A model generated the notes under the pieces. It worked only from the letters and a program-made list of their open reading frames with translations, did no database searches and was not told where the DNA came from. A DNA stretch of 64,000 nucleotides from Candidatus Tenderia sp. (GTDB lineage: Bacteria > Pseudomonadota > Gammaproteobacteria > Tenderiales > Tenderiaceae): assembly GCA_031416075.1 (NCBI GenBank), contig JANOSY010000073.1:3822-67821 (forward strand), given 5' to 3'. How positions within the stretch are numbered: position 1 is the first letter of the stretch; the number at the start of each line of letters is the position of its first letter. This document shows positions 1,672-38,596 of this stretch, one piece after another. The translations under genes were made by a program, and so were the position numbers.

Positions 1672-1855
1672 CCCTGTAGTGTTAGTAAGGAGAACTGCGT
1701 CATCCCGATAAAACCACCCATACAAAAATGGTTATCTATTGTCATTTTGGTAGCTCTTTAAGGTAATAACTTGTGATTTTATAGTAAATATTACCTTTTT
1801 TTAGAACTCTCATTGGGTCAGAATAAAGATAGATAATTATTGGAGGGGAGTATTT

Positions 1856-2638: not shown

Positions 2639-2681
2639 GATCCATCGAATGAGCTACGACTATTTAAATAACACCCTCATT

Positions 2682-4613: not shown

Positions 4614-6982
4614 CCAAAACTTCTCCTACGTAACGTCTCTGACATTGTCATATTTTTGATCTTTTTAATAACAGGGATGGTAGTTACTGGTAATAAAGCC
4701 AGCGCCGGGATCATTACAAATATAGGATCACGCCAATCAAATAGTGTTGGCACATTAAACCATGCCTGACCCAATATACTATTTAGTATCATAGCCAGAA
4801 TATATCCCATCGGAAGCGATAAAATAATACCAATAACACCCAGAATACTCACTTCGACCTTTATCATTTTTGACAGTGTCTTCTGCTCAAATCCCAGTAT
4901 TTCAAGCAAAACAAAATCAGACTCGCGTTCCATGAAGGTAAAAGAGCTACTGGTAAACAGAAACAGTAGTGCAACACCAATACTAAAAGCGGCAGCAAGG
5001 TAGACAATACCCGCAATCTCTTTTAAGTGAGCGATTACCTCCGCAACAAGCTCTGAACGTACAGTGACCTTCCCTACTCGACTATCTTGATAAAACGCTG
5101 AACTAAGATTGCTATTTTGATTAGCAGAGACCAATACTCCTGTGTTCTGATCATTAAGATCTAACCAGTGTCGTGCTGCATTGATGGTTGTAAATGTTTC
5201 ACCCGGTAATGCACCAGAGAACACCCCCACTAAAACAGCCTCCACATCACCTTGTTTTCCCTCTACGGTGAGTGATTCACCAATGGTTATACCCAGGCTT
5301 GCGGCTAACTTTCTCTCCATAACCACTGAATTGGTATCAGAAGAGTTCAATCCTCTACCCTCTAATATTATCAAGGATCGTAAGCTATCGTCCGGAGACA
5401 CCCCAATTAGCAATCCACTTTCACGTTTATTATTCACAGCAAACCTGGCAGGACCACGGACAAACAGATCTAAACTCTGAACACCTGAAATATTATTCAG
5501 ATCCTCCAACTCGTCATCCCACACAGGTGATAAAAAGTCGACGGCATACTCCCAGTTATCCTTAGAGAATCCATTAACAATCGCCCCCTGAAAAGAGCTT
5601 AATGCAACAAAATAGGCCAGCGCTGGTGCCAATGCCAGAGCCACCGAGACAACCGTCATTAAACTTGCGTAACGGCGACGGAGTATTGATTGTATCGAAT
5701 AACGCCACACTGGAGAGCTCAATTTTGATGCCGAGGCACCGTGATCAGGAGCGGGAGACGGTGGGGAGTCACGCACAGCGCTGAGCGGTGTGATTTTCAA
5801 GGCCTGGCGCAATGGATAAGAGACCCCTGCTATACAGGCAAAGATAAGACCGAAAAAGGCCCACACAATATGTGGTGAAAAGAGTACTAAATTGGGTGAA
5901 GGTAAACCAATCGCGTTGGCATACTCCATTCCAAAACCGTACAGCATAACAAAAGATATACCAATACCACTTAATGTCCCACCAATAGCAATCACAGATA
6001 CCGGTACAAATACCCGTAATGCCATAGATCCTTTGCCATACCCTAATGCAGAGAACACACCTAGCTGTTGACGTTGCCGTGCGACCCATTGGTATAAGAG
6101 AAAAAATAGAATAGTCACCGCACACACAGCAAAAATTGCAACAATAGCGGGGGTAAATATTCTAAATGCACCTAAGTCGACATTAAGAAACATATGGCCA
6201 AATTGGTGTGATAGAGGAATATCCTCATCAATAGAGAGTTTGCTTTTTGACCGATTCAAAACCTCTTTTGCAATATTTTCAGGAAGATCATTAGCAGAGA
6301 GATTGCCCGTAAACAAAACACTATTGACAAGATCAAAACCCAAACGTTGATGCATTAATGTACGTGGGGCAAAAATAACACCTAAAGAGCCTTTTGATGG
6401 TAAGAAAAAATTAGGATTTGCGCCATCAACGAGGTGTTCTACACTAATAGCGATACCCCGTACTGTTAGGTTAAAGGTAGCTTTACCAATATTAAGGTGT
6501 AATTCATCCCCAATTTTATAGTCATAGTGGCGCGCTAAATTTCGATCTATAACAATTTCAGAGGGTTTTTCATTATCCAAATCCTCACCCTCTGTGATCA
6601 ATAATTTATTAATCTTTGCATCAGCTGTAACGGATACCATTAGACTAGAGAGTGGCATACCATCTTTAAGCACAATATTTCCCGGTAATAATAGTCTCTG
6701 TTCAATACTCTCTATACCTGAAATATCGCTCCAATTCGGAATGTTTTTACTATCTTCTGGCGTAAATCTTATTTCATGGGCAGCAATATTTGCTTGTTGA
6801 TAAAGACCATCTCGAAAAGAGAAGAGACTATCGATGGCAGAATATAATCCGGCATACATTCCAAAACCGGCCCCCATAATTAACATTACCGCAACAGTTC
6901 GCCAACGCATTCCCCATAATTCACGTATCGATGAACGGACTGGCAATAATCCACTCATGCTGGCACACATGCGTGAACACAC
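4610..6982 (-). CDS. ABC transporter permease, FtsX/MacB-like, with two permease modules. The true start is probably a few codons inside, because the listed start overlaps the ATPase gene by 28 nt.
   Basis: 790 aa with two groups of TM helices separated by large soluble domains, typical of duplicated FtsX-family permeases. Directly downstream of, and overlapping, an ABC ATPase. Confidence 0.7.
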   Translation of the reverse strand: MCSRMCASMSGLLPVRSSIRELWGMRWRTVAVMLIMGAGFGMYAGLYSAIDSLFSFRDGLYQQANIAAHEIRFTPEDSKNIPNWSDISGIESIEQRLLLPGNIVLKDGMPLSSLMVSVTADAKINKLLITEGEDLDNEKPSEIVIDRNLARHYDYKIGDELHLNIGKATFNLTVRGIAISVEHLVDGANPNFFLPSKGSLGVIFAPRTLMHQRLGFDLVNSVLFTGNLSANDLPENIAKEVLNRSKSKLSIDEDIPLSHQFGHMFLNVDLGAFRIFTPAIVAIFAVCAVTILFFLLYQWVARQRQQLGVFSALGYGKGSMALRVFVPVSVIAIGGTLSGIGISFVMLYGFGMEYANAIGLPSPNLVLFSPHIVWAFFGLIFACIAGVSYPLRQALKITPLSAVRDSPPSPAPDHGASASKLSSPVWRYSIQSILRRRYASLMTVVSVALALAPALAYFVALSSFQGAIVNGFSKDNWEYAVDFLSPVWDDELEDLNNISGVQSLDLFVRGPARFAVNNKRESGLLIGVSPDDSLRSLIILEGRGLNSSDTNSVVMERKLAASLGITIGESLTVEGKQGDVEAVLVGVFSGALPGETFTTINAARHWLDLNDQNTGVLVSANQNSNLSSAFYQDSRVGKVTVRSELVAEVIAHLKEIAGIVYLAAAFSIGVALLFLFTSSSFTFMERESDFVLLEILGFEQKTLSKMIKVEVSILGVIGIILSLPMGYILAMILNSILGQAWFNVPTLFDWRDPIFVMIPALALLPVTTIPVIKKIKNMTMSETLRRRSFG

Positions 6983-7650
6983 CCATCAATCAATGTTAGA
7001 GAACGATCTGTATGTCGCGCAATTTCTGGGTTATGGGTAACAATAATCAATGCCGACCCCGCTTTACGGCACTGATCAAGCAGTACTTTAAGCACCTGCT
7101 CTCCAGTATTGGGGTCTAGATTTCCGGTGGGTTCATCAGCCAGAATTAACGGTGAATTCTTCACAATTGCTCGTGCTATGGCAACCCTCTGTTGTTGTCC
7201 ACCAGACAGTTGTGATGGAAATGAGCGCTCATAATTAGACAATCCTACAAGGTCCAGGCTATTTAAGACCTTATCACGGGCCCCTTTAGGTAATGGTCCA
7301 GAGGCATCCAAACCCGTCAGTACATTTTCAAATACAGTTAACGATGAAATTAAGTTATAAAACTGAAATACAAATCCAACATTGTGGCGTCGATGGTCGG
7401 CTAAGTCTTGTGACTTCATATCAAGAAGCGCCCCATTAATATGCAACGTGCCTGAATCAGCCGTCTCAATTCCACCTAAGATGCTCAACAATGTTGACTT
7501 TCCAGTTCCCGACACACCTAATAACGCAATAGATTCGCCACTAGACATCGATAGATTGACATCTGACAATACCGTAGTTTCAGTAACCCCCTGAAAGTAT
7601 GATTTTTTAATTCCGGATGCCTGTATAAATGAAGATGTAGTACCTGTCAT
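6955..7650 (-). CDS. ABC transporter ATP-binding protein (LolD/MacB-type ATPase).
   Basis: Walker [13 protein letters not shown] signature [14 protein letters not shown], Walker [12 protein letters not shown]. Confidence 0.85.
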
Positions 7651-8138
7651 GATAGGGACTCATACTGTTCTGTTATCGTAGAGATAATTTTCCATTCCAC
7701 ACTCACCTTAATATCAATAGCCGGCTTTAGGGATGAGCTAACAGTGCAGTAATTTTGAAAAATGTCCTCACAACGTTGTCTACGCGGATTATCGACAGTT
7801 AAAATAGGCTTAAGTATCACTTCTACACGATTTATTCTGGGATTTCCTTCAGCATTAGGTATAACAACGGCAGTGGCTTCTGTTTCGATATTGACTATTT
7901 TAAGATGCGCACGTCTACTTGTTTCCAGTAAACTTGCACTTAAACAATGAGCCACTGCTGTGGCCAATAGTGCAGGTGTTGCCGGTCCTGATGCATCTCC
8001 TACTGGATCTGGCTCATCAGAAACATAAGGTAATCCATGAGGTTTTTGATCTTCACTGGCCTGGGTAACAAAACGATAACGATCCAGATATTTCATTGAA
8101 ATATCAAACCTTCGCTCTTGTTGATCACGCATTTCCAT
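7647..8138 (-). CDS. OsmC/Ohr family peroxiredoxin-like protein.
   Basis: ATPALLATAVAHCLSASL... pattern characteristic of the OsmC fold. Its stop overlaps the ABC ATPase start (ATGA). Confidence 0.7.
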   Translation of the reverse strand: MEMRDQQERRFDISMKYLDRYRFVTQASEDQKPHGLPYVSDEPDPVGDASGPATPALLATAVAHCLSASLLETSRRAHLKIVNIETEATAVVIPNAEGNPRINRVEVILKPILTVDNPRRQRCEDIFQNYCTVSSSLKPAIDIKVSVEWKIISTITEQYESLS

Positions 8139-8172
8139 ATATATCTCCTAACAATTCAATATTACTATTCTA

Positions 8173-8859
8173 TTACTCTGCAACAACTTTCCGTATGAAA
8201 TTAAATCTATTCTCTAACTTATAACCAATAAAACTAATGATCACACCCACTACAGCAAAACCTGCAGCCATCACTAAATAAGAGATTAACATTTTATTTG
8301 GATTACGCTCGGCCGCTATCAATCCAGACTGCATTAAATCAATAACACCTACAACATAGATAACAGCTGTATCTTTAAAAAGAGAAACAGCAAAACTTGC
8401 GCTTGCAGGTGTCATTCGACGTAACCCCTGAGGTATCACAACACTAATAAAAACTTGACTCTTTGATAACCCCGTTGCTTGTGCTGCTTCAACTTCACCT
8501 GAAGGTACTGAGGAAAAACCAGCACGAACAATTTCAGCTTGATACGCTGATGAATAGAGTGTTAATGCTATAAATGCACTCAATAATGGCGGTATATTGA
8601 TGCCAATCATGATAGGTAGTAAAAAATGGCACCAGAAGAGCAAAAGTATCAATGGTGTTGATCTTAGTACTTCAATAAATGCTGTGGCACAAAAACCGCT
8701 TATTCTCCCGCCTGCCATTCTCAATAGTGCAAGCGGAACCGCAAACATGAATCCCATTACAAAACAAGATACTGCTAATCCAATATTGATTAGAAGTCCC
8801 CCAGGGGGTCCATCCGGCCATCCGCCGATCATCATGAAACTCAACCAATCAAGACTCAT
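8173..8859 (-). CDS. Polar amino acid ABC transporter permease (HisM/GlnP family).
   Basis: Multi-TM protein, EAA-like loop region ...AQATGLSKSQVFISVVIPQGLRRM. Paired with a second permease and ATPase. Confidence 0.8.
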   Translation of the reverse strand: MSLDWLSFMMIGGWPDGPPGGLLINIGLAVSCFVMGFMFAVPLALLRMAGGRISGFCATAFIEVLRSTPLILLLFWCHFLLPIMIGINIPPLLSAFIALTLYSSAYQAEIVRAGFSSVPSGEVEAAQATGLSKSQVFISVVIPQGLRRMTPASASFAVSLFKDTAVIYVVGVIDLMQSGLIAAERNPNKMLISYLVMAAGFAVVGVIISFIGYKLENRFNFIRKVVAE

Positions 8860-9611
8860 GTTACTGGTACCGATAGAGATGGTTTATTGAGTACATCTTT
8901 AGTACTGTATCGACATAAATTGAGTCTGTTTTCCATTTTATGTGATACAGAACCCAATATTAAAGAGATGACAATATAAAAAATAGTTGCTACAAGCGTT
9001 GCCTCTAACCCTCTAAAACTTAACGACTCTATCTGCTGTGTTGCCCATGTCAGCTCAGTGACACCAATAACTATACATAGTGATGAATTTTTAAAATTAT
9101 GAATGGTTCTATTGGCTAATGCGGGAAGAACAATTCGAATTGCAAGGGGCAATAAACAACATATCCACTGTTGTTTTGATGTTAGTCCACAGCTTTTTGC
9201 CGCCTCTCTTTCACCAGAAGAGATGGCAAGTACGCCATTTCTTAATATATCTGATACATACGTTCCATTATCGATACTTAATGCAACTATTCCGGCTAAG
9301 AGTGCATAACTTCCCCAGCCATGCAAAATACTGCCTAGTGAATCAGGCAGTATCTCTGGAAAAACAAAATAAAAAAACAGTATCCAAAAAACTGCCGGGA
9401 TATGTCGTGCGACGCCGACCCATGCACTGCAGGGCCAGACAAAATATTTCACCGGTGATAGGCGCCCTGAAGCAATAACAATGCCTATCAGTATTGATAA
9501 AATAGTGCTAAAAAAGGCGATAATAAACGTGTGTGCAACGCCATAAAGTAGATAATCCCGATACTCATGACGGGCAATAACAGACCAGTCAAATTCGTAT
9601 GTAAACTCCAT
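8856..9611 (-). CDS. Polar amino acid ABC transporter permease (HisQ/GlnP family).
   Basis: Multi-TM, ...EAAKSCGLTSKQQWICCLLPLAIRIVLPAL... EAA motif. 4-nt overlap with the downstream permease. Confidence 0.8.
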   Translation of the reverse strand: MEFTYEFDWSVIARHEYRDYLLYGVAHTFIIAFFSTILSILIGIVIASGRLSPVKYFVWPCSAWVGVARHIPAVFWILFFYFVFPEILPDSLGSILHGWGSYALLAGIVALSIDNGTYVSDILRNGVLAISSGEREAAKSCGLTSKQQWICCLLPLAIRIVLPALANRTIHNFKNSSLCIVIGVTELTWATQQIESLSFRGLEATLVATIFYIVISLILGSVSHKMENRLNLCRYSTKDVLNKPSLSVPVT

Positions 9612-9620
9612 ATTATCTAC

Positions 9621-10361
9621 TTATACCATCTCTAACATCGATGATTGACGTACACTGTTTGCCAATCTTCCCACCCGATCAGTCGATTGACAGGCCAGAG
9701 TATTACAATCAACTTCAGTTAATGTTCCATTGTTGAGCATGAAAAAACGATTCCCTGTTGCACACGCAAAATCAAGATCATGGGTTACCACTATCTGCGC
9801 TATATTGAGATCTGCAAGTGATTTAATATTTTCTGATACTTCATCACGTAGACGCCAATCCAGTGCTGATGTAGGCTCGTCAAATAACATCACATCCGGG
9901 GACATGGCTAAACACCTTACAATCGCAATTCTCTGTTTTTCTCCACCAGAAAGGCTGTCTGGATATATATCTTTTCTATGAGAAACCGAAAATTTATCCA
10001 TTAGGTCAATAGCAATATTGATGGCTAATTTTTTAGTCAGTTTTTTCACCCTAATTAGCGGTAATGTTATATTTTCCAGTGCGGTCAAGTGGGAAAACAG
10101 ATTGCAATGTTGAAAAACAATACCTACACGTGACCGCAACTCACAAAGATTGATTCCTTCATCATAAAGAGATACTCCATCAATCATAATATCCCCGGAG
10201 TCGATAACCTCCATTCTATTAATCGTCCTTAATAGTGTTGTTTTGCCACTGCCGCTTGGGCCGCATATCATTGCAACCTCTCCACGCTGCAATGATAGCG
10301 TCACACTATTTAGGATTGTTTTTCCTGAGATTATCTTCCCCACTGATTTCAACTCAATCAT
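9621..10361 (-). CDS. Polar amino acid ABC transporter ATP-binding protein.
   Basis: Walker A GPSGSGKTT, signature LSGGEKQRIAIVRCLA, Walker B MLFDEPTSALD. Confidence 0.85.
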   Translation of the reverse strand: MIELKSVGKIISGKTILNSVTLSLQRGEVAMICGPSGSGKTTLLRTINRMEVIDSGDIMIDGVSLYDEGINLCELRSRVGIVFQHCNLFSHLTALENITLPLIRVKKLTKKLAINIAIDLMDKFSVSHRKDIYPDSLSGGEKQRIAIVRCLAMSPDVMLFDEPTSALDWRLRDEVSENIKSLADLNIAQIVVTHDLDFACATGNRFFMLNNGTLTEVDCNTLACQSTDRVGRLANSVRQSSMLEMV

Positions 10362-10379
10362 TGAAAGCTCCTCGAGTTA

Positions 10380-11252
10380 TTAATCGGGTAATACATAGGC
10401 CATATCACCAAACGTATCTGAAGGTAAGCGCGGGCGAGCATTATGTGGCATCGGATAGAGCCCTTTTTCACCAAACCATTTCTGGTATATTCTTTCGTAA
10501 CTACCATCTTTAATCATGTCTTGTAATACAAAGCTCACCGCATCCCGCCATTTACTGTCATTCGGTGGAACACCTATGCCATAAAGACCTGGACTAAAGC
10601 CGGTGCCTACAACCTCAAACTCTGAGGCTGACTCTCCAGCCAATGCCGCTATAATAGGGCTGTCTTGACAAAACACATCTATCTTCCCTTGCTTTAATGC
10701 CAAAATCCCCTCGGCATTTTTTTGAAATGCGATTATCTTTGGTTCTAATTTGCTGTATTTCATGATCTCCTGAGGTGCCGCTGTATAAGCATTTGACCCC
10801 TGATTAACACCAATTTTTTTTCCTGCCAGATCGGATATTTTCTTAAATTCATTTTTTCTCGCATAAAATATCTTGGCCGTCCAAAGATAAGGTGGTTCAG
10901 CATAATCTATCTGCTCTTCACGGCCCCGTGTTTGTGATAGATTTGAAATTGTCATATCAATCTTTCGGTTAGATAGATAGGCTATCCGTGTCTTATTGTT
11001 GACGACAACAAGCTCTACTTTCACACCGAGTTGTTTTCCTATTTCGTTACCTAAATCGACATCGAAACCTGTCCAGTTTCCTTTTTCGTCAATAAAGTTC
11101 ATCGGAGGTGTATCATTACCCGTTCCTATGCGAATAGTGTTTGATTTTTTTACTTGATCAAAAATTGATTCTGCATTAACAATACTTGAGTTAATCACAC
11201 AAGAGAAAAGGCCTATAAATAAAGTGTTTTTAAATAGCTGGTTCAATTTCAT
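10380..11252 (-). CDS. Periplasmic polar amino-acid-binding protein (SBP_bac_3 family).
   Basis: Signal peptide MKLNQLFKNTLFIGLFSCVINSSIVNA. Typical two-lobed binding-protein motifs (GFDVDLGNEIGKQLG...). Its 5' end overlaps the stop of the upstream reductase gene. Confidence 0.8.
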   Translation of the reverse strand: MKLNQLFKNTLFIGLFSCVINSSIVNAESIFDQVKKSNTIRIGTGNDTPPMNFIDEKGNWTGFDVDLGNEIGKQLGVKVELVVVNNKTRIAYLSNRKIDMTISNLSQTRGREEQIDYAEPPYLWTAKIFYARKNEFKKISDLAGKKIGVNQGSNAYTAAPQEIMKYSKLEPKIIAFQKNAEGILALKQGKIDVFCQDSPIIAALAGESASEFEVVGTGFSPGLYGIGVPPNDSKWRDAVSFVLQDMIKDGSYERIYQKWFGEKGLYPMPHNARPRLPSDTFGDMAYVLPD

Positions 11253-12432
11253 AGTGATTTATCTCTTTAATATTATTTTTCGGAAACTCTTTGCTAAACT
11301 TTTCTTTATAAAGAGCCATTTCTTTAGAGTTTTCAATAAATAGATTTTGACATCGCTCTACGCTATCCCCTGTTCCGTTATAAAAAACAAGACCTTTTTC
11401 TGATAAAGGCCCCATCCACTCTCTGCAAAAATTCCATTGGTGCGTCCCTATTTTTAGATTTACCTGTGCAAACGTAAGGTATGCACGTTGACGGATATCA
11501 ATCGATTTAAGATCAACATCCTCAAATTTTGAATAGTAGTGGACACGATGTGGTCTGACTATTTTTATCCACATCTCCCATAAATTTCTCATACTTGGCG
11601 AACTATTATTGTCTGATACCAAGTTACATATTGATGCATCAGGCAACCAGCGATGCGCATATAAAAATGACTCTTGAAACATATCTTGGTGTATTAAATT
11701 TAGTGGTTGATTGGGTGCCACAGTATGCATATCTGAATGGTATCTATCAGTCATCAACCGGGCTAATCCCATCCACTGTTGGTACAATCCGTAACGCTTA
11801 CCCGAGTATCGACCACTCTCCCAATCGCCGATCAAAATAGAGGGTCTAAGAATCAGATAAGGCAATCCACTCTGGGCAACCAACCATTCAGCCTTTCTTT
11901 TTGATGATGTGTAAGAAGTTGGGTCTTTTTCGGGGTCATCATGTAATATCTCTTTAACGTCTCCACTAATATAACCAGAGCTATAGGCTGTAGAAATAAA
12001 TGTAAAGCGCCGTACCCTCAAACGTTTACCGATAGAGAGCATCCATTTTGTTAATTGGATGTTAACCACGTCCAAATCGGCTTCATTGAAATAATCCAGG
12101 CATCCGGCACAGTGCACTATTTCATCTATCTCATAGGGTGTTAATGCCTCCTCAAAATCATCGTCACCAATGTCACTACTACCATTCCAGGGGATAATTT
12201 TTACATTACCATAAACACTCTCTAAAGATTCTCCAAATGCTGATAGCTCATTGTTAAGACGAAACAAAAAATTGTCTATGGATGATGATGCGCGTAATGG
12301 GATAACTATATTCTCTACTCCTGATGACAATAGTTTGGCAGCAATCAGAGTGCCTAGATAACCGCTCCCACCTGTTAGCAGCACTGTATCTGGACGAAAC
12401 TCTTTTGACCTTAGGTCATTAATTGTTTTCAT
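11230..12432 (-). CDS. NAD(P)-dependent thioester-reductase-type SDR (NAD_binding_4, male-sterility-domain-like). It may form aldehyde or alcohol from an acyl/aminoacyl thioester.
   Basis: Rossmann motif VLLTGGSGYLGTLIAAKL near the N-terminus and catalytic YTSSKRKAE (YxxxK). The 400-aa size fits stand-alone thioester reductase domains. Confidence 0.6.
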   Translation of the reverse strand: MKTINDLRSKEFRPDTVLLTGGSGYLGTLIAAKLLSSGVENIVIPLRASSSIDNFLFRLNNELSAFGESLESVYGNVKIIPWNGSSDIGDDDFEEALTPYEIDEIVHCAGCLDYFNEADLDVVNIQLTKWMLSIGKRLRVRRFTFISTAYSSGYISGDVKEILHDDPEKDPTSYTSSKRKAEWLVAQSGLPYLILRPSILIGDWESGRYSGKRYGLYQQWMGLARLMTDRYHSDMHTVAPNQPLNLIHQDMFQESFLYAHRWLPDASICNLVSDNNSSPSMRNLWEMWIKIVRPHRVHYYSKFEDVDLKSIDIRQRAYLTFAQVNLKIGTHQWNFCREWMGPLSEKGLVFYNGTGDSVERCQNLFIENSKEMALYKEKFSKEFPKNNIKEINHYEIEPAI

Positions 12433-12434
12433 CG

Positions 12435-12875
12435 TTACGCCACCTCTTCAGAAGGTAACAATTTCTTTTCAATTTTCTCTGGCTCTGGAATTCCGCCATA
12501 AAATGCAATTTTTCTATTAATAATTAATATAGGAAATATATTAAAACCCTGTGTCGATACAAGGGACTGTATCTGTTCAACCAGTCGATGCTCACTTGGT
12601 TCAAGATCACCACTCTTTATCTTTGACAGCGCTTTTCTGGCATCTGTAATTGAAATTGTCATCACTGAGATATTGGATCCGGAATTCTTTAAGGCAATAT
12701 CAACATTGTTTTTTAGCTTTTCATCACTCTGTGATGCTAATGGGGAGCAACATTTTGCAGAGACAATACCGATCCCGCCTTCATACATTACGGATCTTAA
12801 GTGAATCAGTGCATCCCCACTGTTGCTGTTCCCGCAAAAAAGTTTACATAGCGAATCAAACATATAACCCTCCAT
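12435..12875 (-). CDS. Thioredoxin-fold protein (redox-active disulfide protein-like).
   Basis: Paired cysteines (KCCSP). C-terminal ...FPILIINRKIAFYGGIPE resembles the cis-Pro/beta-strand/GG region of small thioredoxin_3-type proteins. Tightly packed between the permease and reductase with 1-2 nt gaps. Confidence 0.45.
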   Translation of the reverse strand: MEGYMFDSLCKLFCGNSNSGDALIHLRSVMYEGGIGIVSAKCCSPLASQSDEKLKNNVDIALKNSGSNISVMTISITDARKALSKIKSGDLEPSEHRLVEQIQSLVSTQGFNIFPILIINRKIAFYGGIPEPEKIEKKLLPSEEVA

Positions 12876-12876
12876 T

Positions 12877-13800
12877 TCAAAAATTAGGAATTGTCCACTG
12901 CGCGAGAAAACCCAATATCACAGCAGCTGTTACTACAGCGACAATATGAGCAACTATTAGTGGCCAACGAAACAGTCTTAAGAGCAGTATCATTTCAGGC
13001 AAGCTTGTTCCTGCACCAGAGATTAACAAGGCAACCAATGGTCCAGGATCCATCCCTTTCTCTATCAGTGCATAGCCGATAGGCACAATTGCCATAGGCG
13101 ATATGTATAGAGGAACAGCAATCAAGGCAACCAGTGGGATCAAGAAGTAGGGAGGAAAAGTATGATCCAGGTCTGTTAGTATGTTCTCTGGCATATAGCC
13201 GTGTATTAACCCGCCAATAATAATGCCTATCACTAGATAAGGCATGATCTGCCGTAATTCCATACGCGCCGCTCCCCATGAAAAAGAGAGCGCGGTACGA
13301 AATTTTGGGCGAGATACCTCTCCCGTGGAATCCCCCATATAACCTTCTGGAACAGCTACCGTGCCTAAAGGGCGCAGAAAACGTATCATGCCTGTGCGCT
13401 CTACAAGGATGCCGGCTAAAATGGAGAGAAGTGCTGCTGACAAAACAAATATCACAGCACTGCCAAACCCTGGACCACTGACCAATAATATAATGACACC
13501 TTCATTAATCACGGGGGATGAGATCAGAAAAGTAAAACATGAAGCCAAACCAATTTTTGACCTCAACATCCCACTTAGCACAGGTACCGTGGAACATGAA
13601 CAGAAAGGGGTAACGGCCCCACCAATGGCGGCTAATGTTGCGCCGTTCCAAGATGATGCGTTGGCAAGTTTTACCTCTATTGAGCGCCCTAACGAAAATT
13701 GCTGCGCCAGAAATATCAACATTGATATACCCAAAAACAGTATGACCAACATTAAGCCATCCAAAAGAATGAAATTTATAACGTCAACAACTTTATCCAT
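12877..13800 (-). CDS. DUF318/ArsP-type permease with the TPFCSCS thiol motif.
   Basis: Motif AVTPFCSCSTVPVLSG matches the conserved TPFcSCSxxP signature recalled for ArsP organoarsenical efflux permeases and DUF318 two-repeat permeases. About 8 TM segments. Confidence 0.65.
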   Translation of the reverse strand: MDKVVDVINFILLDGLMLVILFLGISMLIFLAQQFSLGRSIEVKLANASSWNGATLAAIGGAVTPFCSCSTVPVLSGMLRSKIGLASCFTFLISSPVINEGVIILLVSGPGFGSAVIFVLSAALLSILAGILVERTGMIRFLRPLGTVAVPEGYMGDSTGEVSRPKFRTALSFSWGAARMELRQIMPYLVIGIIIGGLIHGYMPENILTDLDHTFPPYFLIPLVALIAVPLYISPMAIVPIGYALIEKGMDPGPLVALLISGAGTSLPEMILLLRLFRWPLIVAHIVAVVTAAVILGFLAQWTIPNF

Positions 13801-13850
13801 AACAGCGCTCTTGAACAGGTATTGTTTTTTGTATGTTAAAAATTAGATTA

Positions 13851-14702
13851 TTAACAACACGATTCAGTGGTGGCACTGTTTTTTGTTTGCGCCAAACGTA
13901 AATCGGCAGATGGCATTCCACCATAACTGGACATGCTTGCTATCAGTGGTGTTGTGACTTTTACATCAAACCCAACTTCATCTAACGTTTCAATATAGGC
14001 ATCAAGCGCTTCTATACGAATATCTTCGATGTCTGTACGTATGCTATCCAAACCAATATCACCACAATTCACGCCAAGCTCACCACAAAGAGAGTGGCAG
14101 CTGGTGCTAATCATGCTGAAAAGTTCTGGCATGACACGATGGTGTGCCCAGACAAGGCTGTCATGAACACCATCATAGTCACTGGAGAGCATCTCTTTAA
14201 GCCGTCTGATACCGATGCCAAGATGTTCAATTTCATCGCTCAATATGGACTTTGCAAGGTCGCGTGTATCCGGGTCTGTATCGCGCTGAAGAATTTTATA
14301 CAACACAATGGCCATTGTCTCTGTCATCAGGTCTTGAATAATTAGGCATGCGGCCAGATCCTTTTTTGCGACTGCTGCAGAGAACTGTTTGCGTATATGC
14401 AACCACTGAGGTTCGACAATTCGTTGTTCAACAGGAAAGTCGAGTCTGCGCCCAAGGCTGGAGAGCATTTTGATATGTTTGGTCTCTTCAAAGGCCTGTT
14501 TTGCAGTCTCAATTTTTGAGTTGGTATCTTTCCATAAGGGCACCATCTCGGAATAGTTCTCTACAGCCATAATCTCGCCAGCTACTGCATTTGAGACTAT
14601 GTAGGCCATCAAGTCATAATATCTTTGGTCTTTACCGTGCCGCTGATTGCGCATCTCTTTGACTTCATTTCTATCCAATTCGTTAATATTCACACTATTC
14701 AT
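13851..14702 (-). CDS. Ferritin-like di-iron carboxylate protein (putative oxygenase/oxidase). First gene of the long minus-strand cluster.
   Basis: Two E...ExxH-type segments (AGEIMAVENYSEM... and DEIEHLGIG) spaced as in di-iron four-helix-bundle enzymes. No signal peptide. Confidence 0.5.
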   Translation of the reverse strand: MNSVNINELDRNEVKEMRNQRHGKDQRYYDLMAYIVSNAVAGEIMAVENYSEMVPLWKDTNSKIETAKQAFEETKHIKMLSSLGRRLDFPVEQRIVEPQWLHIRKQFSAAVAKKDLAACLIIQDLMTETMAIVLYKILQRDTDPDTRDLAKSILSDEIEHLGIGIRRLKEMLSSDYDGVHDSLVWAHHRVMPELFSMISTSCHSLCGELGVNCGDIGLDSIRTDIEDIRIEALDAYIETLDEVGFDVKVTTPLIASMSSYGGMPSADLRLAQTKNSATTESCC

Positions 14703-15229
14703 TTCTCTATCTCCGTTATGGGATGCCTGGAAATGTTGGTTCCCCGATTTTTTTGAGACCCGATAATTTGGGCGTGATACATACTCTCATCTGTCAGAGA
14801 TCTGTTAAATAGTACAAATGTACCCATCTGAATATTTATAGTGCCGCGGACTGATGCTATCGACAAACAACATGATGTTTGTAAGAGAAGTATGATTTTT
14901 TTCAATATTAAACTTTAATCCTTCCAATACCTCCATTGACTTGATAATGATCGCCCTCCTTAACCAAAGAAAATACTTTACGGACATTAACTGCCATATG
15001 GCCGCTCTCTTCTGGTTTTTTTATCAAACGGGTATTAGTCTCAGCACCACCTATTGCAGCACCAATACCGTGTCACTTATGTTTTTTCTCATATGTAGTG
15101 GCTGAGGTATATTGGAACTAGCCGCAGTAATCGCGACGACGATAAGATTCCAGTGACCTAACATATTGTATTTATACCTATTAATAGTGAATCAAGGTTC
15201 TGTTAGTTGACAACATCCGCCACCTCACT

Positions 15230-15445
15230 TACAGTGCGCTCCTGCTTCAGGTGTCCTAAGGGCTATCGCCTAATGGATGAAACGGGAAGCCGGTGCGCTC
15301 TGGTAATAACCAGCGCTAACCCGGCACTGCCCCCGCAACGGTAAACGAGTTTAAGGTTCTGCTTACGCCACTGTGTTCTGCACGGGAAGGCGCAAACCTT
15401 GGGAAAAGACCCCCACTCGTGAGTCCGGAGACCGGCCTGCGGCAT
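15230..15445 (+). ncRNA. Cobalamin (adenosylcobalamin) riboswitch in the btuB leader.
   Basis: Conserved core gaaacGGGAAgccGGTGcg...ccGGCACTGCCCCCGCAACGGTAAacg. B12 box GCCACTG at 15367..15373. Downstream gagtCCGGAGACCGGCC element. Sits immediately upstream of a TonB-dependent receptor gene and cob biosynthesis genes. Confidence 0.85.
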
Positions 15446-15586
15446 AAGTTCGGCATTGCGGAGGGCGATGCACCGGCATGTGTGGCCTATTTTTCACCCC
15501 TCCACCCTTGCTATCACTCCTCCTCCATTTGCCATATGGCCTTTAATTATTCAGTTCGTGCCCCGATGTGCACGAAGGAGAGAGAT

Positions 15587-17416
15587 ATGCAGTTGCGTTC
15601 ATTGTCAGCAGCGGTAGCGCTGTTGAGTGCCCTTCCCCTTTACTCCGTTACAGCCATTGCTGCGGATGCGGACGCTGTGATTGTGACAGCAACACGTACA
15701 GCTCAGACCGTTGATGACTCACTTGCATCTGTTAGTGTCATTACTCGTGCTGATATCGAGCGACTTCAGGCCCAATCCTTACAAGATCTGCTACGTGGTA
15801 TAGCAGGTATCTCCGTTGCCAATAATGGCGGCGCAGGTAAATACACTGCACTATTTATGCGTGGTACCGAGTCTGACCACGTACTGGTTTTGATTGATGG
15901 TGTAAAAGTTGGTTCTGCCACCTCAGGCAGCACTGCATTTCAAGACATTCCACTGGCTCAAATAGAACGTATTGAGATTGTACGTGGACCGCGCTCCAGT
16001 CTGTACGGTTCAGAGGCCATTGGCGGTGTGATTCAGATCTTCACCCGTAAAGGAAAAGGCCAGATCACCCCTTCCATGAGTATTGGCGCTGGCAGTTACG
16101 GTACCTACAGCGCCCAGGCGGGTGTCACCGGGGGTAACGATAGTCGCTGGTTCAGTGCCAATCTTAACAGCCTCAATACCAAAGGTTTTAATGCCTGTAA
16201 TGGTTCCGCCATCAGTGGTTGTTATACAGTTGAGCCTGATAAGGATGATTACCACAATGTGGCGGCATCACTGCGTGGTGGATTCCGTTTTGGCAGCAGT
16301 GGTACCGCAGAACTAAATGCTTTACGTAGTGAAAGCGATACATCCTATGATGGATCATTCTCCAATGAGTCATCATCCGTGCAACAGGTATTGGGTGGCA
16401 ATGTCAGTTTTGCGGCAGCACCATCCTGGCAGGTAAGTTTGGCGGCAGGCCAGAGCCGTGATATGTCTGATGGATTTAAGGATGGCAATTTCAAAGGCGA
16501 TTTTAATACTCGCCGCAAAAGTGCTACCTGGCAGAACGACATCACTGTAAGTGACAACAACCTGTTAACAGTCGGTCTGGATCGTCAGCTTGATTTTATT
16601 GAAAGCACCACAAACTTTGCTGTCACCTCTCGTGGCAACAAGGCTGTTTTTGCTCAGTATCAATCTGCGGTCAGTGATACCTTTGATATGCAGCTATCGT
16701 TACGTCGTGATAGCAATGAGCAGTTTGGTAATCAGGGCACTGGCGGTGTGGCATTTGGCGCTGATATCGGCCATTCGATGCGCGCTACCTACGCCTATGG
16801 GACTGCTTTTAAGGCCCCCACCTTTAATGAGCTCTACTATCCTGGATACGGTACTGCCACACTGGTTCCGGAAGATTCGCGCAATATTGAGGTGGGTTTG
16901 GAAGGTAAAACAACACAGGGACACTGGGCTGTTAACCTCTACGAAAACCGCATCAGTAATCTGATTGCCTATGACGCCTCAATTTTTGCCCCTAACAATC
17001 TCGATCAAGCTAACATTCGTGGCATTGAGGCCATCTGTGGTGTTGATATGAACGGTTGGGCCATGAATGCAAACCTGACATTGCTCGATCCTGAGAATCG
17101 TGCCAGCGGTAGCAATTACGGCAAAGTACTACCACGCCGTGCTAAAAAATCGTATCGCCTTGATGCTGACCGTGCTTTAGGTGCGTACCAGGTAGGTGCC
17201 AGTTTACGTGCCGAAGGTAGCCGCTATGATGATCTGGCCAATAACCGTCGCCTGGGTGGCTACGCCACTGTTGATCTGCGCGCCGGTTACGACATCAGCG
17301 ATGATTGGCAGGTTCAGGCACGGGCTGAAAACCTGCTTGATAAAGGGTATGAGACCGCTGCCTTTTATAACCAGCCAGGCCGTAGCCTGTTTGTCACACT
17401 GCGTTACCAGCCGTAA
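15587..17416 (+). CDS. btuB: TonB-dependent outer-membrane vitamin B12 receptor.
   Basis: The ATG at 15587 is preceded by AAGGAGAGAG. Signal peptide MQLRSLSAAVALLSALPLYSVTAIA. TonB box DAVIVTATR. Plug and barrel motifs. Downstream of the B12 riboswitch. The listed ORF start at 15419 lies inside the riboswitch and is not the real start. Confidence 0.85.
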   Translation: MQLRSLSAAVALLSALPLYSVTAIAADADAVIVTATRTAQTVDDSLASVSVITRADIERLQAQSLQDLLRGIAGISVANNGGAGKYTALFMRGTESDHVLVLIDGVKVGSATSGSTAFQDIPLAQIERIEIVRGPRSSLYGSEAIGGVIQIFTRKGKGQITPSMSIGAGSYGTYSAQAGVTGGNDSRWFSANLNSLNTKGFNACNGSAISGCYTVEPDKDDYHNVAASLRGGFRFGSSGTAELNALRSESDTSYDGSFSNESSSVQQVLGGNVSFAAAPSWQVSLAAGQSRDMSDGFKDGNFKGDFNTRRKSATWQNDITVSDNNLLTVGLDRQLDFIESTTNFAVTSRGNKAVFAQYQSAVSDTFDMQLSLRRDSNEQFGNQGTGGVAFGADIGHSMRATYAYGTAFKAPTFNELYYPGYGTATLVPEDSRNIEVGLEGKTTQGHWAVNLYENRISNLIAYDASIFAPNNLDQANIRGIEAICGVDMNGWAMNANLTLLDPENRASGSNYGKVLPRRAKKSYRLDADRALGAYQVGASLRAEGSRYDDLANNRRLGGYATVDLRAGYDISDDWQVQARAENLLDKGYETAAFYNQPGRSLFVTLRYQP

Positions 17417-17500
17417 ATATTGGCACAGTACCCTCCTCTGTTTAGGGAGGGTGTTGTGATCACATTGAAACACACTTACTTTTAAAACAGGCGCGATACT

Positions 17501-18082
17501 ATGTTAACGCTCTCTACCCGACATCAAATTTTTATTGGTCTGTCGCTATTGTTGTTGATGATCACCACCCGTGGTCACCACTTTGCAACACTGGAGCATC
17601 TGCCAAGTGCTTCATGGGCGGTGTTTCTGCTGGCGGGACTCTATCTGCGCCCGGTGTGGGTTTTTCCTGCGCTGTTAGCGTTGGCCGGTTCGCTCGACTA
17701 TGCAGCGATCACCTGGGGTGGTGTCTCTAATTTTTGCGCCAGCCCGGCGTATCCGATGTTACTGCCCGCCTACGGTTCACTCTGGCTGGCGGGGCGCTGG
17801 TATGCCAAACAGTACCATGCTCACTGGAGTACACTTGTACCTGCATCGCTGGCCATTTTATTGGGTGCAACGGTGTGTGAGCTCTTCTCCAGTGGGGGTT
17901 TCTATTTTCTATCAGGCCATTTTGTCGATCCAACACTGACTGAGTTTGGGGCGCGGTTTATTCAATATTTTCCCGGTTCCTTACAATCACTGCTGTTCTA
18001 CATCACCATCGCTGCTGTGATACATCTGCTGTTGGTATCGATACAGAACATCACTACCAAACATAATAGAACCGGGGGTTAA
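17501..18082 (+). CDS. Small polytopic membrane protein of unknown function embedded in the B12 regulon.
   Basis: 193 aa with about 5-6 hydrophobic helices and no recognisable motif. Located between btuB and cobO in the same orientation. Confidence 0.45.
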   Translation: MLTLSTRHQIFIGLSLLLLMITTRGHHFATLEHLPSASWAVFLLAGLYLRPVWVFPALLALAGSLDYAAITWGGVSNFCASPAYPMLLPAYGSLWLAGRWYAKQYHAHWSTLVPASLAILLGATVCELFSSGGFYFLSGHFVDPTLTEFGARFIQYFPGSLQSLLFYITIAAVIHLLLVSIQNITTKHNRTGG

Positions 18083-18086
18083 TGCC

Positions 18087-18692
18087 ATGGATGACACTGA
18101 CAAATCCGTACGCCATCGTAACCGTATGCAGCGTAAAAAAGAGGTGGTGGATGCCTCCATCGCCCGTGCTGATCAAGACAAAGGGTTACTGCTGGTACTC
18201 ACGGGCAACGGCAAGGGTAAATCAAGTTCTGCTTTTGGCATGGTGGCGCGTGCCCTTGGGCACGGTATGCAGGTGGGTGTGGCGCAATTTATCAAAGGGC
18301 GCTCTGATACGGGTGAAGAGGCCTTTTTTCGTCAGCAACCCGGTGTGGTGTGGCATGTGCTGGGTGAGGGGTTTACCTGGGATACACAGAACTTGGAACG
18401 TGATATCGAAACGGCCAATCGTGGTTGGAGCATTGTGCGTGAGATATTGCAAGATCCCACCATCGGTCTGGTAGTACTGGATGAACTCACCTATCCGATC
18501 AAATATGGCTGGCTCGATATTGACATGGTATTGAGTGATCTCGCCGCCCGCCCACCTATGCAGCATGTGGTGATCACCGGTCGCGGTGCAGCCGAGGCGC
18601 TCTGTGATGTGGCCGATACGGTGACTGAGCTCGACGATGTAAAACATGCCTTTCGTGCCGGGGTGCGGGCACAAAACGGGATTGATCTATGA
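18087..18692 (+). CDS. cobO: Cob(I)yrinic acid a,c-diamide adenosyltransferase (CobO/BtuR).
   Basis: P-loop LLLVLTGNGKGKSSSAFG and a conserved CobA/BtuR core. About 200 aa. Confidence 0.9.
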   Translation: MDDTDKSVRHRNRMQRKKEVVDASIARADQDKGLLLVLTGNGKGKSSSAFGMVARALGHGMQVGVAQFIKGRSDTGEEAFFRQQPGVVWHVLGEGFTWDTQNLERDIETANRGWSIVREILQDPTIGLVVLDELTYPIKYGWLDIDMVLSDLAARPPMQHVVITGRGAAEALCDVADTVTELDDVKHAFRAGVRAQNGIDL

Positions 18693-19987
18693 GCCAAGGG
18701 GAAAGGCAGTGCCCTGCACTGTTTATCTCGGCTCCCGCCTCTGGTCAAGGCAAAACCACTGTCACTGCGGCACTGGCGCGCTACCATCGCAACAGAGGAT
18801 GTAAGGTCCGTATCTTTAAAACCGGTCCTGATTTTTTAGATCCGATGATTCTGGAGCAGGCCGCTGGCGCGGCGGTATACCCACTGGATCTCTGGATGGG
18901 CGGCGCTGACCACTGCCGGGCGCTGCTCTATCATGCAGCGGCTGATGCCGATCTGATTCTGATTGAAGGGGTCATGGGGCTGTTTGATGGCTCCTCCTCT
19001 AGTGCGGATCTGGCACGATTTTTTGGCATTCCCGTTATGGCGGTGATCGATGGTTCAGCCATGGCACAAACCTTTGGTGCCTTGGCACACGGCCTTGCTA
19101 CCTATTGTGATGATCTCCCCTTCGCCGGTCTCTTTGCCAACCGGGTTGGCAGTGAAGGCCACTATCAGATGTTGGCCGACAGTGTGCGACCACCGCTTAC
19201 CGCTGTTGGCTGGCTGGCGCATGATGATGAAATCAAACTACCGGAGCGCCACCTCGGTCTGGTGCAGGCAGATGAGGTGGCTGATCTTGAGTCACGTATC
19301 AATCGTGCGGCCGCTGCACTCAACCATGTTCCCGATCAATTGCCACCTGCTGTTACCTTTACCCCTGCCGCTACCCACTCAAACGTCACTCCATCACTAC
19401 AAGGAGTGCAGATTGCCGTGGCCAAGGATGCCGCATTTGCTTTTATCTACCACGCCAATCTTGATCTGTTACGTGCTCACGGTGCCGAGATAACATTTTT
19501 TTCACCCCTGAGTGATACCACACTGCCCGCTGCGGATGCGCTCTATCTGCCCGGCGGTTATCCAGAGTTACACTTAAATACGTTGGCAAGCAATCAACCG
19601 ATGAAAGTGGCAATCACCCAACACCAGATGGAGCAAAAGCCGATCGTTGCCGAGTGTGGCGGTATGCTCTATCTGCTTAACGCACTCACTGCTGTTGATG
19701 GTCAACGGGCGACAATGGTTGGATTATTGCCAGGAGAGGCCACTATGCAAAAGTCGCTCTCCAATATTGGTATGCAGAGTGTGCAACTGCCGGAGGGTGA
19801 GTTGCGTGGCCATACCTTCCACCACTCATCAACAACGTCTGAGATGGTGCCTTTGACCCACTCTTTGCCAGCCCGACATCACGGCAAGCCGGAGGCTGTT
19901 TATCGCAGATCACGGCTGACTGCCTCATATCTGCATCTCTATTTTCCATCCAACCCGGATGCAGCGGTAAAACTGTTTCAACCATGA
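18689..19987 (+). CDS. cbiA: Cobyrinic acid a,c-diamide synthase (CobB/CbiA).
   Basis: N-terminal ATPase ISAPASGQGKTTVTAALAR and a C-terminal glutamine amidotransferase region. 4-nt overlap with cobO. Confidence 0.9.
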   Translation: MSQGERQCPALFISAPASGQGKTTVTAALARYHRNRGCKVRIFKTGPDFLDPMILEQAAGAAVYPLDLWMGGADHCRALLYHAAADADLILIEGVMGLFDGSSSSADLARFFGIPVMAVIDGSAMAQTFGALAHGLATYCDDLPFAGLFANRVGSEGHYQMLADSVRPPLTAVGWLAHDDEIKLPERHLGLVQADEVADLESRINRAAAALNHVPDQLPPAVTFTPAATHSNVTPSLQGVQIAVAKDAAFAFIYHANLDLLRAHGAEITFFSPLSDTTLPAADALYLPGGYPELHLNTLASNQPMKVAITQHQMEQKPIVAECGGMLYLLNALTAVDGQRATMVGLLPGEATMQKSLSNIGMQSVQLPEGELRGHTFHHSSTTSEMVPLTHSLPARHHGKPEAVYRRSRLTASYLHLYFPSNPDAAVKLFQP

Positions 19988-20643
19988 GCCGCTACAGCGA
20001 TGCTGAAATTGCCGCACTCTACCGTGTGATCCGTAAACGACGCGACATGCGCCACTTTCTGCCAGACCCTATCGATCCAGAGATGCTGAACCGACTGTTA
20101 CATGCGGCACACTGTGCGCCCAGTGTTGGACTGATGCAGCCGTGGCGTTTTGTCCGTGTAACTGATCATGCGTTGCGCCAGCAAATACATCAGCTCGTGG
20201 AAGGCGAACGTATTCAAACTTCTACCGCGCTGAATGAGCGTAGCGATGCCTTTATGAAACTCAAGGTTGAAGGCATTTTAGAGTGTGGTGAATTGATTGT
20301 GGCGGCCTTGATGGAGCAGCGAGAGCAGCACATCTTTGGCCGTCGCACATTGCCAGAGATGGATATCGCCTCTGTGGCCTGTGCCATTCAAAACCTCTGG
20401 CTGGCCGCTCGTGCCGAAGATATCGGTATGGGCTGGGTCTCGCTCTTTGATCCTGTTACTTTGGCCACACTACTCAACATGCCAGCAGGGAGTAAACCGG
20501 TGGCCATCCTCTGCATCGGTCATGTAAAACAGTTCTACTCTGCCCCCATGTTAGAACTGGAAGGTTGGGCCAAGGGTCGACCATTGGAAGAGCTGCTTTT
20601 TCATAACAGCTGGGGCAATACTATGACGGAGAGTTCAACATGA
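19984..20643 (+). CDS. bluB: 5,6-dimethylbenzimidazole synthase (BluB, nitroreductase fold).
   Basis: RRDMRHFLPDPIDPEMLNRLLHAAHCAPSVGLMQPWRFVRV matches the BluB/nitroreductase signature. Located in the cob operon. Confidence 0.85.
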   Translation: MSRYSDAEIAALYRVIRKRRDMRHFLPDPIDPEMLNRLLHAAHCAPSVGLMQPWRFVRVTDHALRQQIHQLVEGERIQTSTALNERSDAFMKLKVEGILECGELIVAALMEQREQHIFGRRTLPEMDIASVACAIQNLWLAARAEDIGMGWVSLFDPVTLATLLNMPAGSKPVAILCIGHVKQFYSAPMLELEGWAKGRPLEELLFHNSWGNTMTESST

Positions 20644-23351: not shown

Positions 23352-23365
23352 ACAGAAGAGATAAT

Positions 23366-24430: not shown

Positions 24431-24448
24431 TACGTTAAACGAGCTAAA

Positions 24449-24486: not shown

Positions 24487-24500
24487 GTAAACGGTAATAG

Positions 24501-37406: not shown

Positions 37407-37430
37407 CGGATGTTGTTTCACAGATTAGCC

Positions 37431-38567: not shown

Positions 38568-38596
38568 TAATGCACCTCATATTGAAAATATTGGGG

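Follow-up and report, generated by a model that had tools for sequence, protein, structure and literature searches.

Cyanobacteria form alkanes with the products of two genes: acyl-ACP reductase (AAR), which turns an acyl thioester into an aldehyde, and aldehyde-deformylating oxygenase (ADO), a ferritin-like di-iron enzyme. We analysed a 64-kb stretch of DNA from Candidatus Tenderia sp. (contig JANOSY010000073.1; the whole stretch is referred to as the window) that holds an operon headed by a comparable pair of minus-strand genes, coding for an ADO-like di-iron protein (13851–14702, 283 aa, first of the operon) and a thioester-reductase-type SDR (11230–12432, 400 aa), with an ArsP_1-family permease (12877–13800, 307 aa) and a small ArsD/Thioredoxin_3-like protein with a vicinal cysteine pair (12435–12875, 146 aa; the CC protein) between them. 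All functions discussed here are read from sequence and gene context, and on that footing the cluster appears to work most like the AAR/ADO pathway, yet it is not a member of that family. The di-iron protein has the same iron ligands as ADO, a whole-length alignment to it and its best fold match there; it nevertheless falls far under the ADO equivalog cut-off and carries an inserted cysteine triad and a C-terminal Cys-Cys (CC-COOH) tail. The reductase is a NAD_binding_4 SDR and not AAR, no AAR being seen in the 58 related loci we compared, and the di-iron gene keeps company with genes for arsenic handling, transport and regulation, in hosts that are mostly not cyanobacteria.

A further point of comparison is provided by ars operons, in which ArsP exports trivalent organoarsenicals, not inorganic arsenite, and ArsD is an As(III) chaperone (PMC6205960). 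The operon resembles these in its ArsP_1 permease with a TPFCSCS motif, in a small thioredoxin-fold protein whose vicinal cysteines are placed as in ArsD, in the ArsM proteins of related clusters, and in a regulator with three invariant cysteines, comparable to cysteine-based ArsR sensors. It differs in that the window has no ArsA, ArsB/Acr3, ArsC or ArsR, that the regulator is of LuxR/GerE type, that the CC protein scores under the Pfam threshold for ArsD and has no counterpart to the third cysteine of the Cys12-Cys13-Cys18 site, and that an oxygenase/reductase pair, absent from known ars operons, stands at its centre.

Closer in the recurrence of its cysteine motifs is the selenocysteine-assisted organometallic (SAO) locus proposed by Haft and Gwadz, for which an organometallic substrate was argued from repeated double-cysteine motifs in permease, thioredoxin-like and CC-COOH proteins (10.1101/2022.07.06.499078). 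In both systems an ArsP-family CSC permease adjoins a thioredoxin-like protein, an ABC importer is encoded, one protein ends in CC-COOH, and double-cysteine motifs recur; the present one has no selenoproteins, MerB-like lyase, DsrE-like or double-cubane partner, its enzymes are an ADO-like oxygenase and an SDR, and its hosts are aerobes or facultative Proteobacteria, in contrast to the fermenting anaerobes of SAO. Pfam and NCBIfam scans of the window found no MerB-like or other Sao families beyond a weak SaoE-family match. Finally, the arsinothricin arsQML cluster and the Streptomyces arseno-organic polyketide synthase (PKS) cluster are likewise dedicated organoarsenical clusters with their own methyltransferase and permease (PMC8552651, PMC4943196), and a protein found in one variant of the present system (type B, below) is closest to arsinothricin ArsM. 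Unlike them, the clusters studied here lack both radical-SAM ArsL/ArsS and a phosphoenolpyruvate-mutase-like enzyme, the candidate for C–As or C–C chemistry being instead the di-iron oxygenase.

A conserved core with a cysteine-rich di-iron enzyme

A pattern scan of one genome per species yielded 57 loci, to which look-ups added more; open reading frames (ORFs) were called in each, clustered, and cleared of shadow ORFs. The 58 loci compared cover at least seven phyla or classes. Di-iron and SDR genes are both present in 54 of them and form an invariant core; where both occur they are adjacent or split only by the ArsP/thioredoxin-like pair or by ArsM. Hosts of the core include Proteobacteria, Acidobacteriota, Actinomycetota, Myxococcota and ‘Entotheonella’, and the single clearly cyanobacterial locus (L052) is without the SDR. 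A preliminary description of the window, made from its letters, had expected the four head genes to be co-conserved. At least 26 loci of Beta- and Gammaproteobacteria do share their gene order, but the four are not one unit: the di-iron/SDR core also occurs without the permease and the thioredoxin-like protein, an accessory pair.

The loci fall into five types. Type A clusters (the window, Betaproteobacteria, Chromatiaceae) have the same 12–13 genes as the window. Type B (Pseudomonas, Lysobacteraceae and others) combines the four-gene core with a 354-aa protein and a GerE regulator and, on the divergent side, a Pst-like importer, an acyl-CoA ligase, an MMPL-LolA-like fusion and a probable outer-membrane protein. 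Type C (Acidobacteriota, Sphingomonas, ‘Entotheonella’, Myxococcota) has tandem di-iron paralogues, the SDR, an acyl carrier protein (ACP), a fatty acyl-AMP ligase (FAAL) and membrane desaturases, often also PiT, CobW, UbiB or rhodanese. Type D (Enterovibrio, Grimontia) has ArsP beside ArsR, an amino-acid-type importer, OsmC, the di-iron and SDR genes, MMPL and a LolA-like protein, and type E (Acidimicrobiales) has the di-iron and SDR genes with a PhnD/PhnE-type transporter. The importer thus varies between types, the amino-acid-type one being replaced by Pst-, PiT- or Phn-type transporters in other variants. The gene cluster is rare and horizontally spread among bacteria, and is present in culturable strains of Pseudomonas, Denitromonas, Marilutibacter (Lysobacteraceae), Sphingomonas and Enterovibrio. 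In one type A cluster a phage-type integrase lies directly beside the regulator (L070, 8730–9848), which fits the low-GC, horizontally acquired look of the island in the window. Our literature search found no description of the cluster, in keeping with the preliminary description, which had called the module uncharacterised, and no link of ADO-like proteins to arsenic; the cluster is a real, conserved and uncharacterised system.

The di-iron protein matches PF11266 (Ald_deCOase) at 1.6e-19, with 71.1 bits against a gathering score of 28, and reaches 73.4 bits on TIGR04059, the ADO equivalog model, against a cut-off of 222.65; because it passes the former threshold and fails the latter, we assign it to a separate subfamily and not to the ADO orthologues. 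A PDB sequence search aligned it end to end with cyanobacterial ADO structures (E ~1e-13, 22–26% identity). In a Foldseek search of the PDB with an AF2 model built from 17 homologues (pLDDT 82, tail 262–283 disordered), the best 26 matches were all ADO chains (TM 0.77–0.88 on the target, 18–26% identity), and the next fold families were PaaA/PaaC and R2lox (TM 0.52–0.62). AurF, ADO and acyl-ACP desaturase had been named beforehand as structures worth comparing, and it is ADO specifically that the protein resembles. An identity as an AurF-like N-oxygenase or an acyl-ACP desaturase was rejected, as no such chain is among the matches listed and ADO is clearly best.

The ferritin-like protein had been expected to keep E/H iron ligands, and E43, E73-x2-H76, E128 and E157-x2-H160 align to those of ADO, all six being invariant across 57 loci. 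Equally invariant across these loci is an inserted triad, C202, C206 and C213 (CxxxC-x6-C), at which the pLDDT falls to 57–75, and the C-terminal tail ends in C282-C283, a CC-COOH end that is absent from the di-iron protein in type B only. The database name of the protein is ‘long-chain fatty aldehyde decarbonylase’; judged by their sequences, the cysteine-rich proteins appear to be a new branch of the ADO family that this name mislabels. No homologue of the di-iron protein was found in a plasmid collection. In type C two ADO-like paralogues lie in tandem (L038 9015–10828, the pair being ~53% identical; L040 9097–10876; L024; L065 6437–8273), both keeping the iron ligands and the cysteine triad; a Cys-Cys end is usually confined to the second, a possible sign of a heterodimer.

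Cysteines recur in the proteins around this enzyme. The permease (PF03773 ArsP_1, 1.5e-39, 136 bits) carries the TPFCSCS motif for which it was first singled out at residues 64–70, with C67 and C69 invariant in 40 homologues, and it falls under the NCBIfam equivalog cut-offs for SO_0444 and SaoE (75 vs 325 bits for SaoE). For its partner, described beforehand as a small double-cysteine protein of thioredoxin fold, the pairing with the permease and an invariant C42-C43 stand, but the fold is significant only with a family profile and not for the lone protein. Alone, the CC protein has no Pfam match at threshold (Thioredoxin_3, E=0.02; ArsD, E=0.19, with 12.5 bits on PF06953 against a gathering score of 27), its single-sequence AF2 model is unusable (pLDDT 40), and a word-indexed homology search matched the 146-aa protein itself only. 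An exhaustive search gave a family of 48 cluster representatives among 1.84 billion proteins. A PDB search with a first, small alignment of this family returned chance matches only; the profile of a larger alignment matched ArsD 3ktb (1.1e-4, spanning the C-terminal 40 residues only) and the Thioredoxin_3 protein MTH895 (3.1e-4), and 35 of 49 family members match Thioredoxin_3 and 34 of 49 ArsD. The C42-C43 pair follows the first strand, as in ArsD; in the family there is no conserved third cysteine, and no ArsA accompanies it. Type A members have an extra N-terminal cysteine pair at residues 10–14 (CxxxC in the window, as LCKLFCG, and CC in several Betaproteobacteria) that is absent from type B members and may provide a further metal(loid) site or anchor the protein to a membrane.

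The SDR matches PF07993 NAD_binding_4 (1.6e-19, 70.5 bits vs 20.1), reaches 70 bits on TIGR01746 (cut-off 213) and has the R domains of MxaA and AusA as best PDB matches; GxxGxxG (G21/G24/G27) and Y174/K178 are conserved, along with C108-x2-C111 and C361, in agreement with the earlier description as a stand-alone SDR of thioester-reductase type. A LuxR/GerE-type regulator (1856–2638, plus strand, convergent to the operon; GerE 4.6e-16) has three invariant cysteines in its N-terminal domain, C83 and C104-x-C106; homologues of it flank type B and type A clusters, and it belongs to the system. A cysteine theme therefore runs through five proteins: CSC in the permease, CC in the chaperone-like protein, triad and CC-COOH in the enzyme, CxxC in the SDR and C...CxC in the regulator.

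Arsenic and lipid genes in related clusters

The preliminary description had proposed a metalloid-containing substrate and suggested looking for ars genes near homologues; ArsM, ArsR and ArsC were found in several related loci. The NCBIfam model for arsenite methyltransferase (cut-off 263) was run on proteins of five of them, and ArsM proteins over the cut-off lie in or beside the cluster in L042 (279.6 bits), L052 (265.9), L066 (301) and L065 (314.8), the candidate in L016 falling just under it (247.6). A methyltransferase in L017, which was not among the proteins scored, clusters with the ArsM set. The methyltransferase genes of L016 and L017 occupy the place that the permease/CC pair has in the window, between the genes for the di-iron protein and the SDR, and in L066 ArsM follows OsmC in an otherwise window-like operon that has neither permease nor CC protein. 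The pair is absent wherever a bona fide ArsM is present (four clusters), an exchange that is seen in gene order.

All type B clusters contain a divergent ArsM relative, the 354-aa protein (3e-15 to 4e-23 to arsinothricin ArsM), which shows no GxGxG S-adenosylmethionine motif in the alignment and ends ...GCC; in this type the CC end is on the ArsM-like protein and the tail of the di-iron enzyme is missing. Among the neighbours in several loci are ArsR, thioredoxin-type ArsC and an aquaporin-family (MIP) channel, and 44 of the 58 loci have at least one arsenic-family marker. With arsenite methyltransferase, ArsR, ArsC and the aquaporin-family channel in related clusters, a metalloid substrate becomes the best reading. 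ArsP adjoins ArsR in type D. The type D ArsR (L054 6509–6853 and other type D loci, in Enterovibrio and Grimontia) has a C-terminal ...EHCCGG with no obvious third cysteine; two-cysteine ArsR proteins are selective for methylarsenite.

Other neighbours point to lipids. The type B acyl-CoA ligase is of medium-/long-chain kind, with 3-(methylthio)propionyl-CoA ligase as its best match (2e-83, under cut-off), and type C clusters have ACP, FAAL and desaturase-like membrane enzymes. Gram-negative types A, B and D share an inner-membrane pump (MacB or MMPL) with a LolA-like carrier; among the candidate outer-membrane proteins, that of type A has a family match (DUF1302) and those of types B and D have none. 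A set of pump, LolA-like carrier and outer-membrane protein fits the export of a hydrophobic molecule. In Adonisia turfae CCMR0081 (L052, 6548–20228) a run of genes comprises ArsM, two fatty-acid desaturases, the cysteine-rich ADO-like gene, FAAL-ACP, a KS-AT-ACP PKS, a PlsC acyltransferase, an HAD protein and an FAD-linked oxidase. This run is a strong candidate for an arsenolipid cluster in a culturable cyanobacterium.

Candidate functions

We tentatively favour, as the most probable single reading, an arsenic-linked acyl-reductase/ADO-like pathway that would make and export a hydrophobic organoarsenical; antimony or another thiophilic metalloid in place of arsenic is less likely. In this pathway the three-cysteine regulator would sense a trivalent arsenical, and the permease and CC chaperone would deliver methylated As(III) to the enzyme, relatives without them using their own ArsM. 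Arsenic would be handed on through cysteine pairs, from permease to CC protein to the tail and triad of the enzyme, or else be made available in situ by ArsM; an Fe–S cluster on the triad seems less likely. The SDR would reduce an acyl thioester (acyl-CoA or acyl-ACP) to an aldehyde, the di-iron enzyme, with the arsenical on its cysteines, would carry out ADO-type C1–C2 scission, and the MacB/LolA-like/outer-membrane system would take over the hydrophobic organoarsenical, of arsenic-hydrocarbon or arsenolipid type, and export it. Thiol supply and protection from peroxide are possible roles for the amino-acid-type importer and OsmC.

Seafood widely contains toxic arsenic hydrocarbons and arsenic fatty acids, and we know of no gene for making either. 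A 2024 study still asks whether they form by accident or under genetic control (PMC11009773). The cluster offers a concrete candidate for the genetics of arsenic-containing lipids, in the form of a conserved reductase and ADO-like oxygenase whose setting includes arsenic methylation, transport of arsenic type, lipid export and a cysteine-based sensor; and even if arsenic is no substrate, a di-iron oxygenase rich in thiols that comes with a sensor and a chaperone-like partner of its own would represent new enzymology.

A bolder version, which we consider quite unlikely, is that the cysteine-rich ADO-like enzyme is itself the missing catalyst of long-chain C–As bond formation. The commonest arsenic hydrocarbons have C15 and C17 chains, the same lengths as ADO alkanes. 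The alkyl radical from scission of a C16/C18 fatty aldehyde would not be quenched by hydrogen and would instead be captured by methylated As(III) held on the cysteine triad after delivery by the CC tail, giving arsenic hydrocarbons of dimethylarsinoyl-pentadecane or -heptadecane type as the direct product. Such capture by cysteine-bound methyl-As(III) would parallel the carbon-radical attack on As(III) by which ArsL is proposed to form C–As bonds (10.1101/2024.02.01.577332). If true, the cluster would give arsenic hydrocarbons their first genetic basis, and radical-SAM C–As bond formation would have a counterpart that depends on oxygen.

Several observations weigh against an arsenic pathway in the window. 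The 64 kb contain no ArsM, ArsR, ArsC or Acr3, and tblastn searches of the window with the relatives’ ArsR, ArsC, aquaporin and ArsM matched only a generic methyltransferase at ~55.9 kb; the arsenic link of the window itself rests on the permease family, the cysteine motifs and the relatives. The window operon likewise has no acyl-activating enzyme and no carrier protein, and tblastn with the relatives’ ACP, ligase, desaturase, PiT and rhodanese gave no match in the window. ArsP is characterised as an exporter, whereas the model calls for uptake or an internal transfer; Cu/Zn too are moved by relatives in ArsP_1, and for SaoE a role with mercury-like metals has been proposed (10.1101/2022.07.06.499078). 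The amino-acid-type importer and OsmC are left unexplained by the model. Lastly, types C and E keep the cysteine triad and tail with recognisable ars genes mostly absent, carrying only PiT, rhodanese, CobW or Phn-type transport in their place, and the cysteines may thus serve a non-arsenic role as an electron relay or an Fe–S/Zn site.

Among the alternatives, the best placed, though in our view unlikely, is salvage or detoxification of imported carboxylated organoarsenicals, in which the acid, once taken up, would be activated to a thioester and reduced to the aldehyde by the SDR, one carbon removed as formate by the di-iron enzyme, and a less toxic or volatile product exported. Candidate substrates would be dimethylarsinoyl-acetate or -propionate, arsenic fatty acids and arsenolipid breakdown products. 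The importers speak for it, as they are always present even as their type varies (amino-acid-type, Pst-like, PiT, PhnDE), and so does the type B ligase, whose closest relative, 3-(methylthio)propionyl-CoA ligase, acts on a small heteroatom-substituted acid; ArsP is, moreover, a family of known detoxification exporters (PMC6205960). However, the FAAL-ACP, desaturases, PKS and PlsC of type C and L052 point to the building of long-chain lipids, an ArsM inside clusters is an anabolic methylation step, the sets of MMPL, MacB, LolA-like protein and outer-membrane barrel fit export of a hydrophobic product, and the window operon lacks the activating ligase that salvage would call for.

ADO requires four external electrons per turnover, and this, with the arsenic-poor types, speaks for an arsenic-free product from an ordinary pathway to hydrocarbons or fatty aldehydes outside cyanobacteria. 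The cysteine triad, the CC tail and the thioredoxin-like protein would then form a thiol-based electron relay, likened to the C-terminal cysteine pair of ribonucleotide reductase, or a metal site for the di-iron centre, and the ArsP_1 permease would move Fe, Cu or Zn. The cysteine features of types C and E without clear ars genes, the Cu/Zn exporters among ArsP_1 relatives and the CobW-type metallochaperones near type C clusters are consistent with this proposal, which nonetheless strikes us as quite improbable: it does not explain why a bona fide ArsM is found in at least four loci and trades places with the permease/CC pair, why all type B clusters have an ArsM-like protein, why ArsR adjoins ArsP in type D or why the regulator has a three-cysteine site. 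In addition, vicinal Cys-Cys pairs are poor redox couples and good soft-metal(loid) ligands.

By analogy to the proposed SAO system, the same architecture might instead serve another thiophilic element (Sb, Hg, Cu, Se or Te), which we rate as very unlikely. ArsM-family enzymes methylate Sb, Se and Te as well, and there are weak NCBIfam matches to SaoE and to an OsmC-related selenoprotein family; the SAO locus, with its ArsP-family CSC permease, thioredoxin-like protein, CC-COOH protein and ABC importer, has been proposed to act on a mercury-like metal (10.1101/2022.07.06.499078). Against this, the neighbours are specifically of ars type (ArsM over its cut-off, thioredoxin-type ArsC, ArsR, aquaporin-family channel), importers of phosphate/arsenate type are among them, and no mer, cop or selenoprotein features and no MerB-like lyase were seen.

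The view taken in the preliminary description, that a thiol-reactive small molecule made from an imported amino acid is oxidatively tailored and reduced, finds some encouragement in the SBP_bac_3 importer that follows the SDR with a 23-nt overlap and is kept in types A and D, and in arsinothricin being an arsenic-containing amino acid (PMC8552651), but it is the least probable and we set it aside: the importer type is not conserved with the core and is swapped for Pst-, PiT- or Phn-type in other variants, no adenylation or carrier domain for an amino acid is present, relatives link the core to fatty-acyl substrates through acyl-CoA/AMP ligases, ACP, desaturases, PKS, PlsC and lipid-type exporters, and the nearest structural relative, ADO, uses fatty aldehydes.

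Operon layout and genomic setting

The four head genes occupy 11230–14702 on the minus strand and are as closely packed as first described, with gaps or overlaps of 50 nt or less: 50 nt between the di-iron and permease genes, 1 nt between the permease and CC-protein genes, and 2 nt between the CC-protein gene and the SDR. A database homologue of the CC protein begins at Met5, so that its true start is likely to be 12863, which would widen the second of these spacings to 13 nt. The SDR in turn overlaps the next gene, for the binding protein of an ABC importer, by 23 nt. Nine further genes follow on the same strand with gaps or overlaps of 34 nt or less, ending at 2682, and the 12-kb co-directional cluster proposed earlier is accordingly real: the whole operon consists of 13 minus-strand, low-GC genes (2682–14702).

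Downstream of the head genes, and on the same strand, lies a polar-amino-acid-type ABC importer (8173–11252), with its binding protein at 10380–11252, ATPase at 9621–10361 and permeases at 8856–9611 and 8173–8859. The binding protein matches SBP_bac_3 (4.6e-37), and its best NCBIfam matches are Lys/Arg/Orn and cystine binding proteins, both under cut-off; the importer is kept in type A and type D clusters. An OsmC/Ohr-like protein (7647–8138, minus strand; PF02566 1.1e-7) has both canonical cysteines, C65 and C131, which are invariant, and its gene always comes after the amino-acid-type importer. The MacB-type ABC exporter (4610–7650, minus strand) comprises an ATPase (6955–7650) and a duplicated FtsX/MacB_PCD permease (4610–6982), with Pfam matches to FtsX and MacB_PCD, and is kept in type A clusters. 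Next come a periplasmic LolA-like carrier (3846–4613) and a DUF1302-like outer-membrane protein (2682–3845), both on the minus strand; matches to PF17131 (1.2e-44) and PF06980 (2.7e-9) cover this pair (2682–4613). The LolA-like domain is fused to the MMPL pump in type B and adjoins it in type D.

The lower GC of the module relative to the cob region, noted at the outset, was confirmed: values are 0.36–0.46 over 1–15000, against 0.49–0.63 in 15000–25000 (the cob region) and 40000–64000. The window DNA is 93.6% identical to a contig of a Gammaproteobacteria metagenome-assembled genome (ND3_Bin_17) and 99.6% identical to a short ENA metagenome scaffold. A tRNA search found none within the 64-kb window, and there is thus no tRNA-linked island boundary. 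Promoter and terminator scans of 1700–15500 gave counts at or near the shuffle expectation.

Beyond the regulator, and at the far end of this low-GC island, lies a gene for a DUF4874/DUF4832 protein (343–1671, plus strand, 442 aa). On the other side of the operon, a cobalamin riboswitch (RF00174, 103.6 bits; 15232–15454, plus strand) is found upstream of a TonB-dependent receptor (ORF 15419–17416) and cob genes, including one of CobQ/CbiA type at 18689–19987; the riboswitch overlaps the listed GTG start of the receptor, whose true start is therefore probably further downstream. A second low-GC island (25154–39000, minus strand, GC 0.37–0.44) carries genes for a response regulator-GGDEF protein (25154–26128), a HAMP histidine kinase (26220–28061), a FecR/Glucodextran_B protein (28061–29353) and a 1965-aa OmpA/Big_1/invasin-like surface protein (29642–35539).

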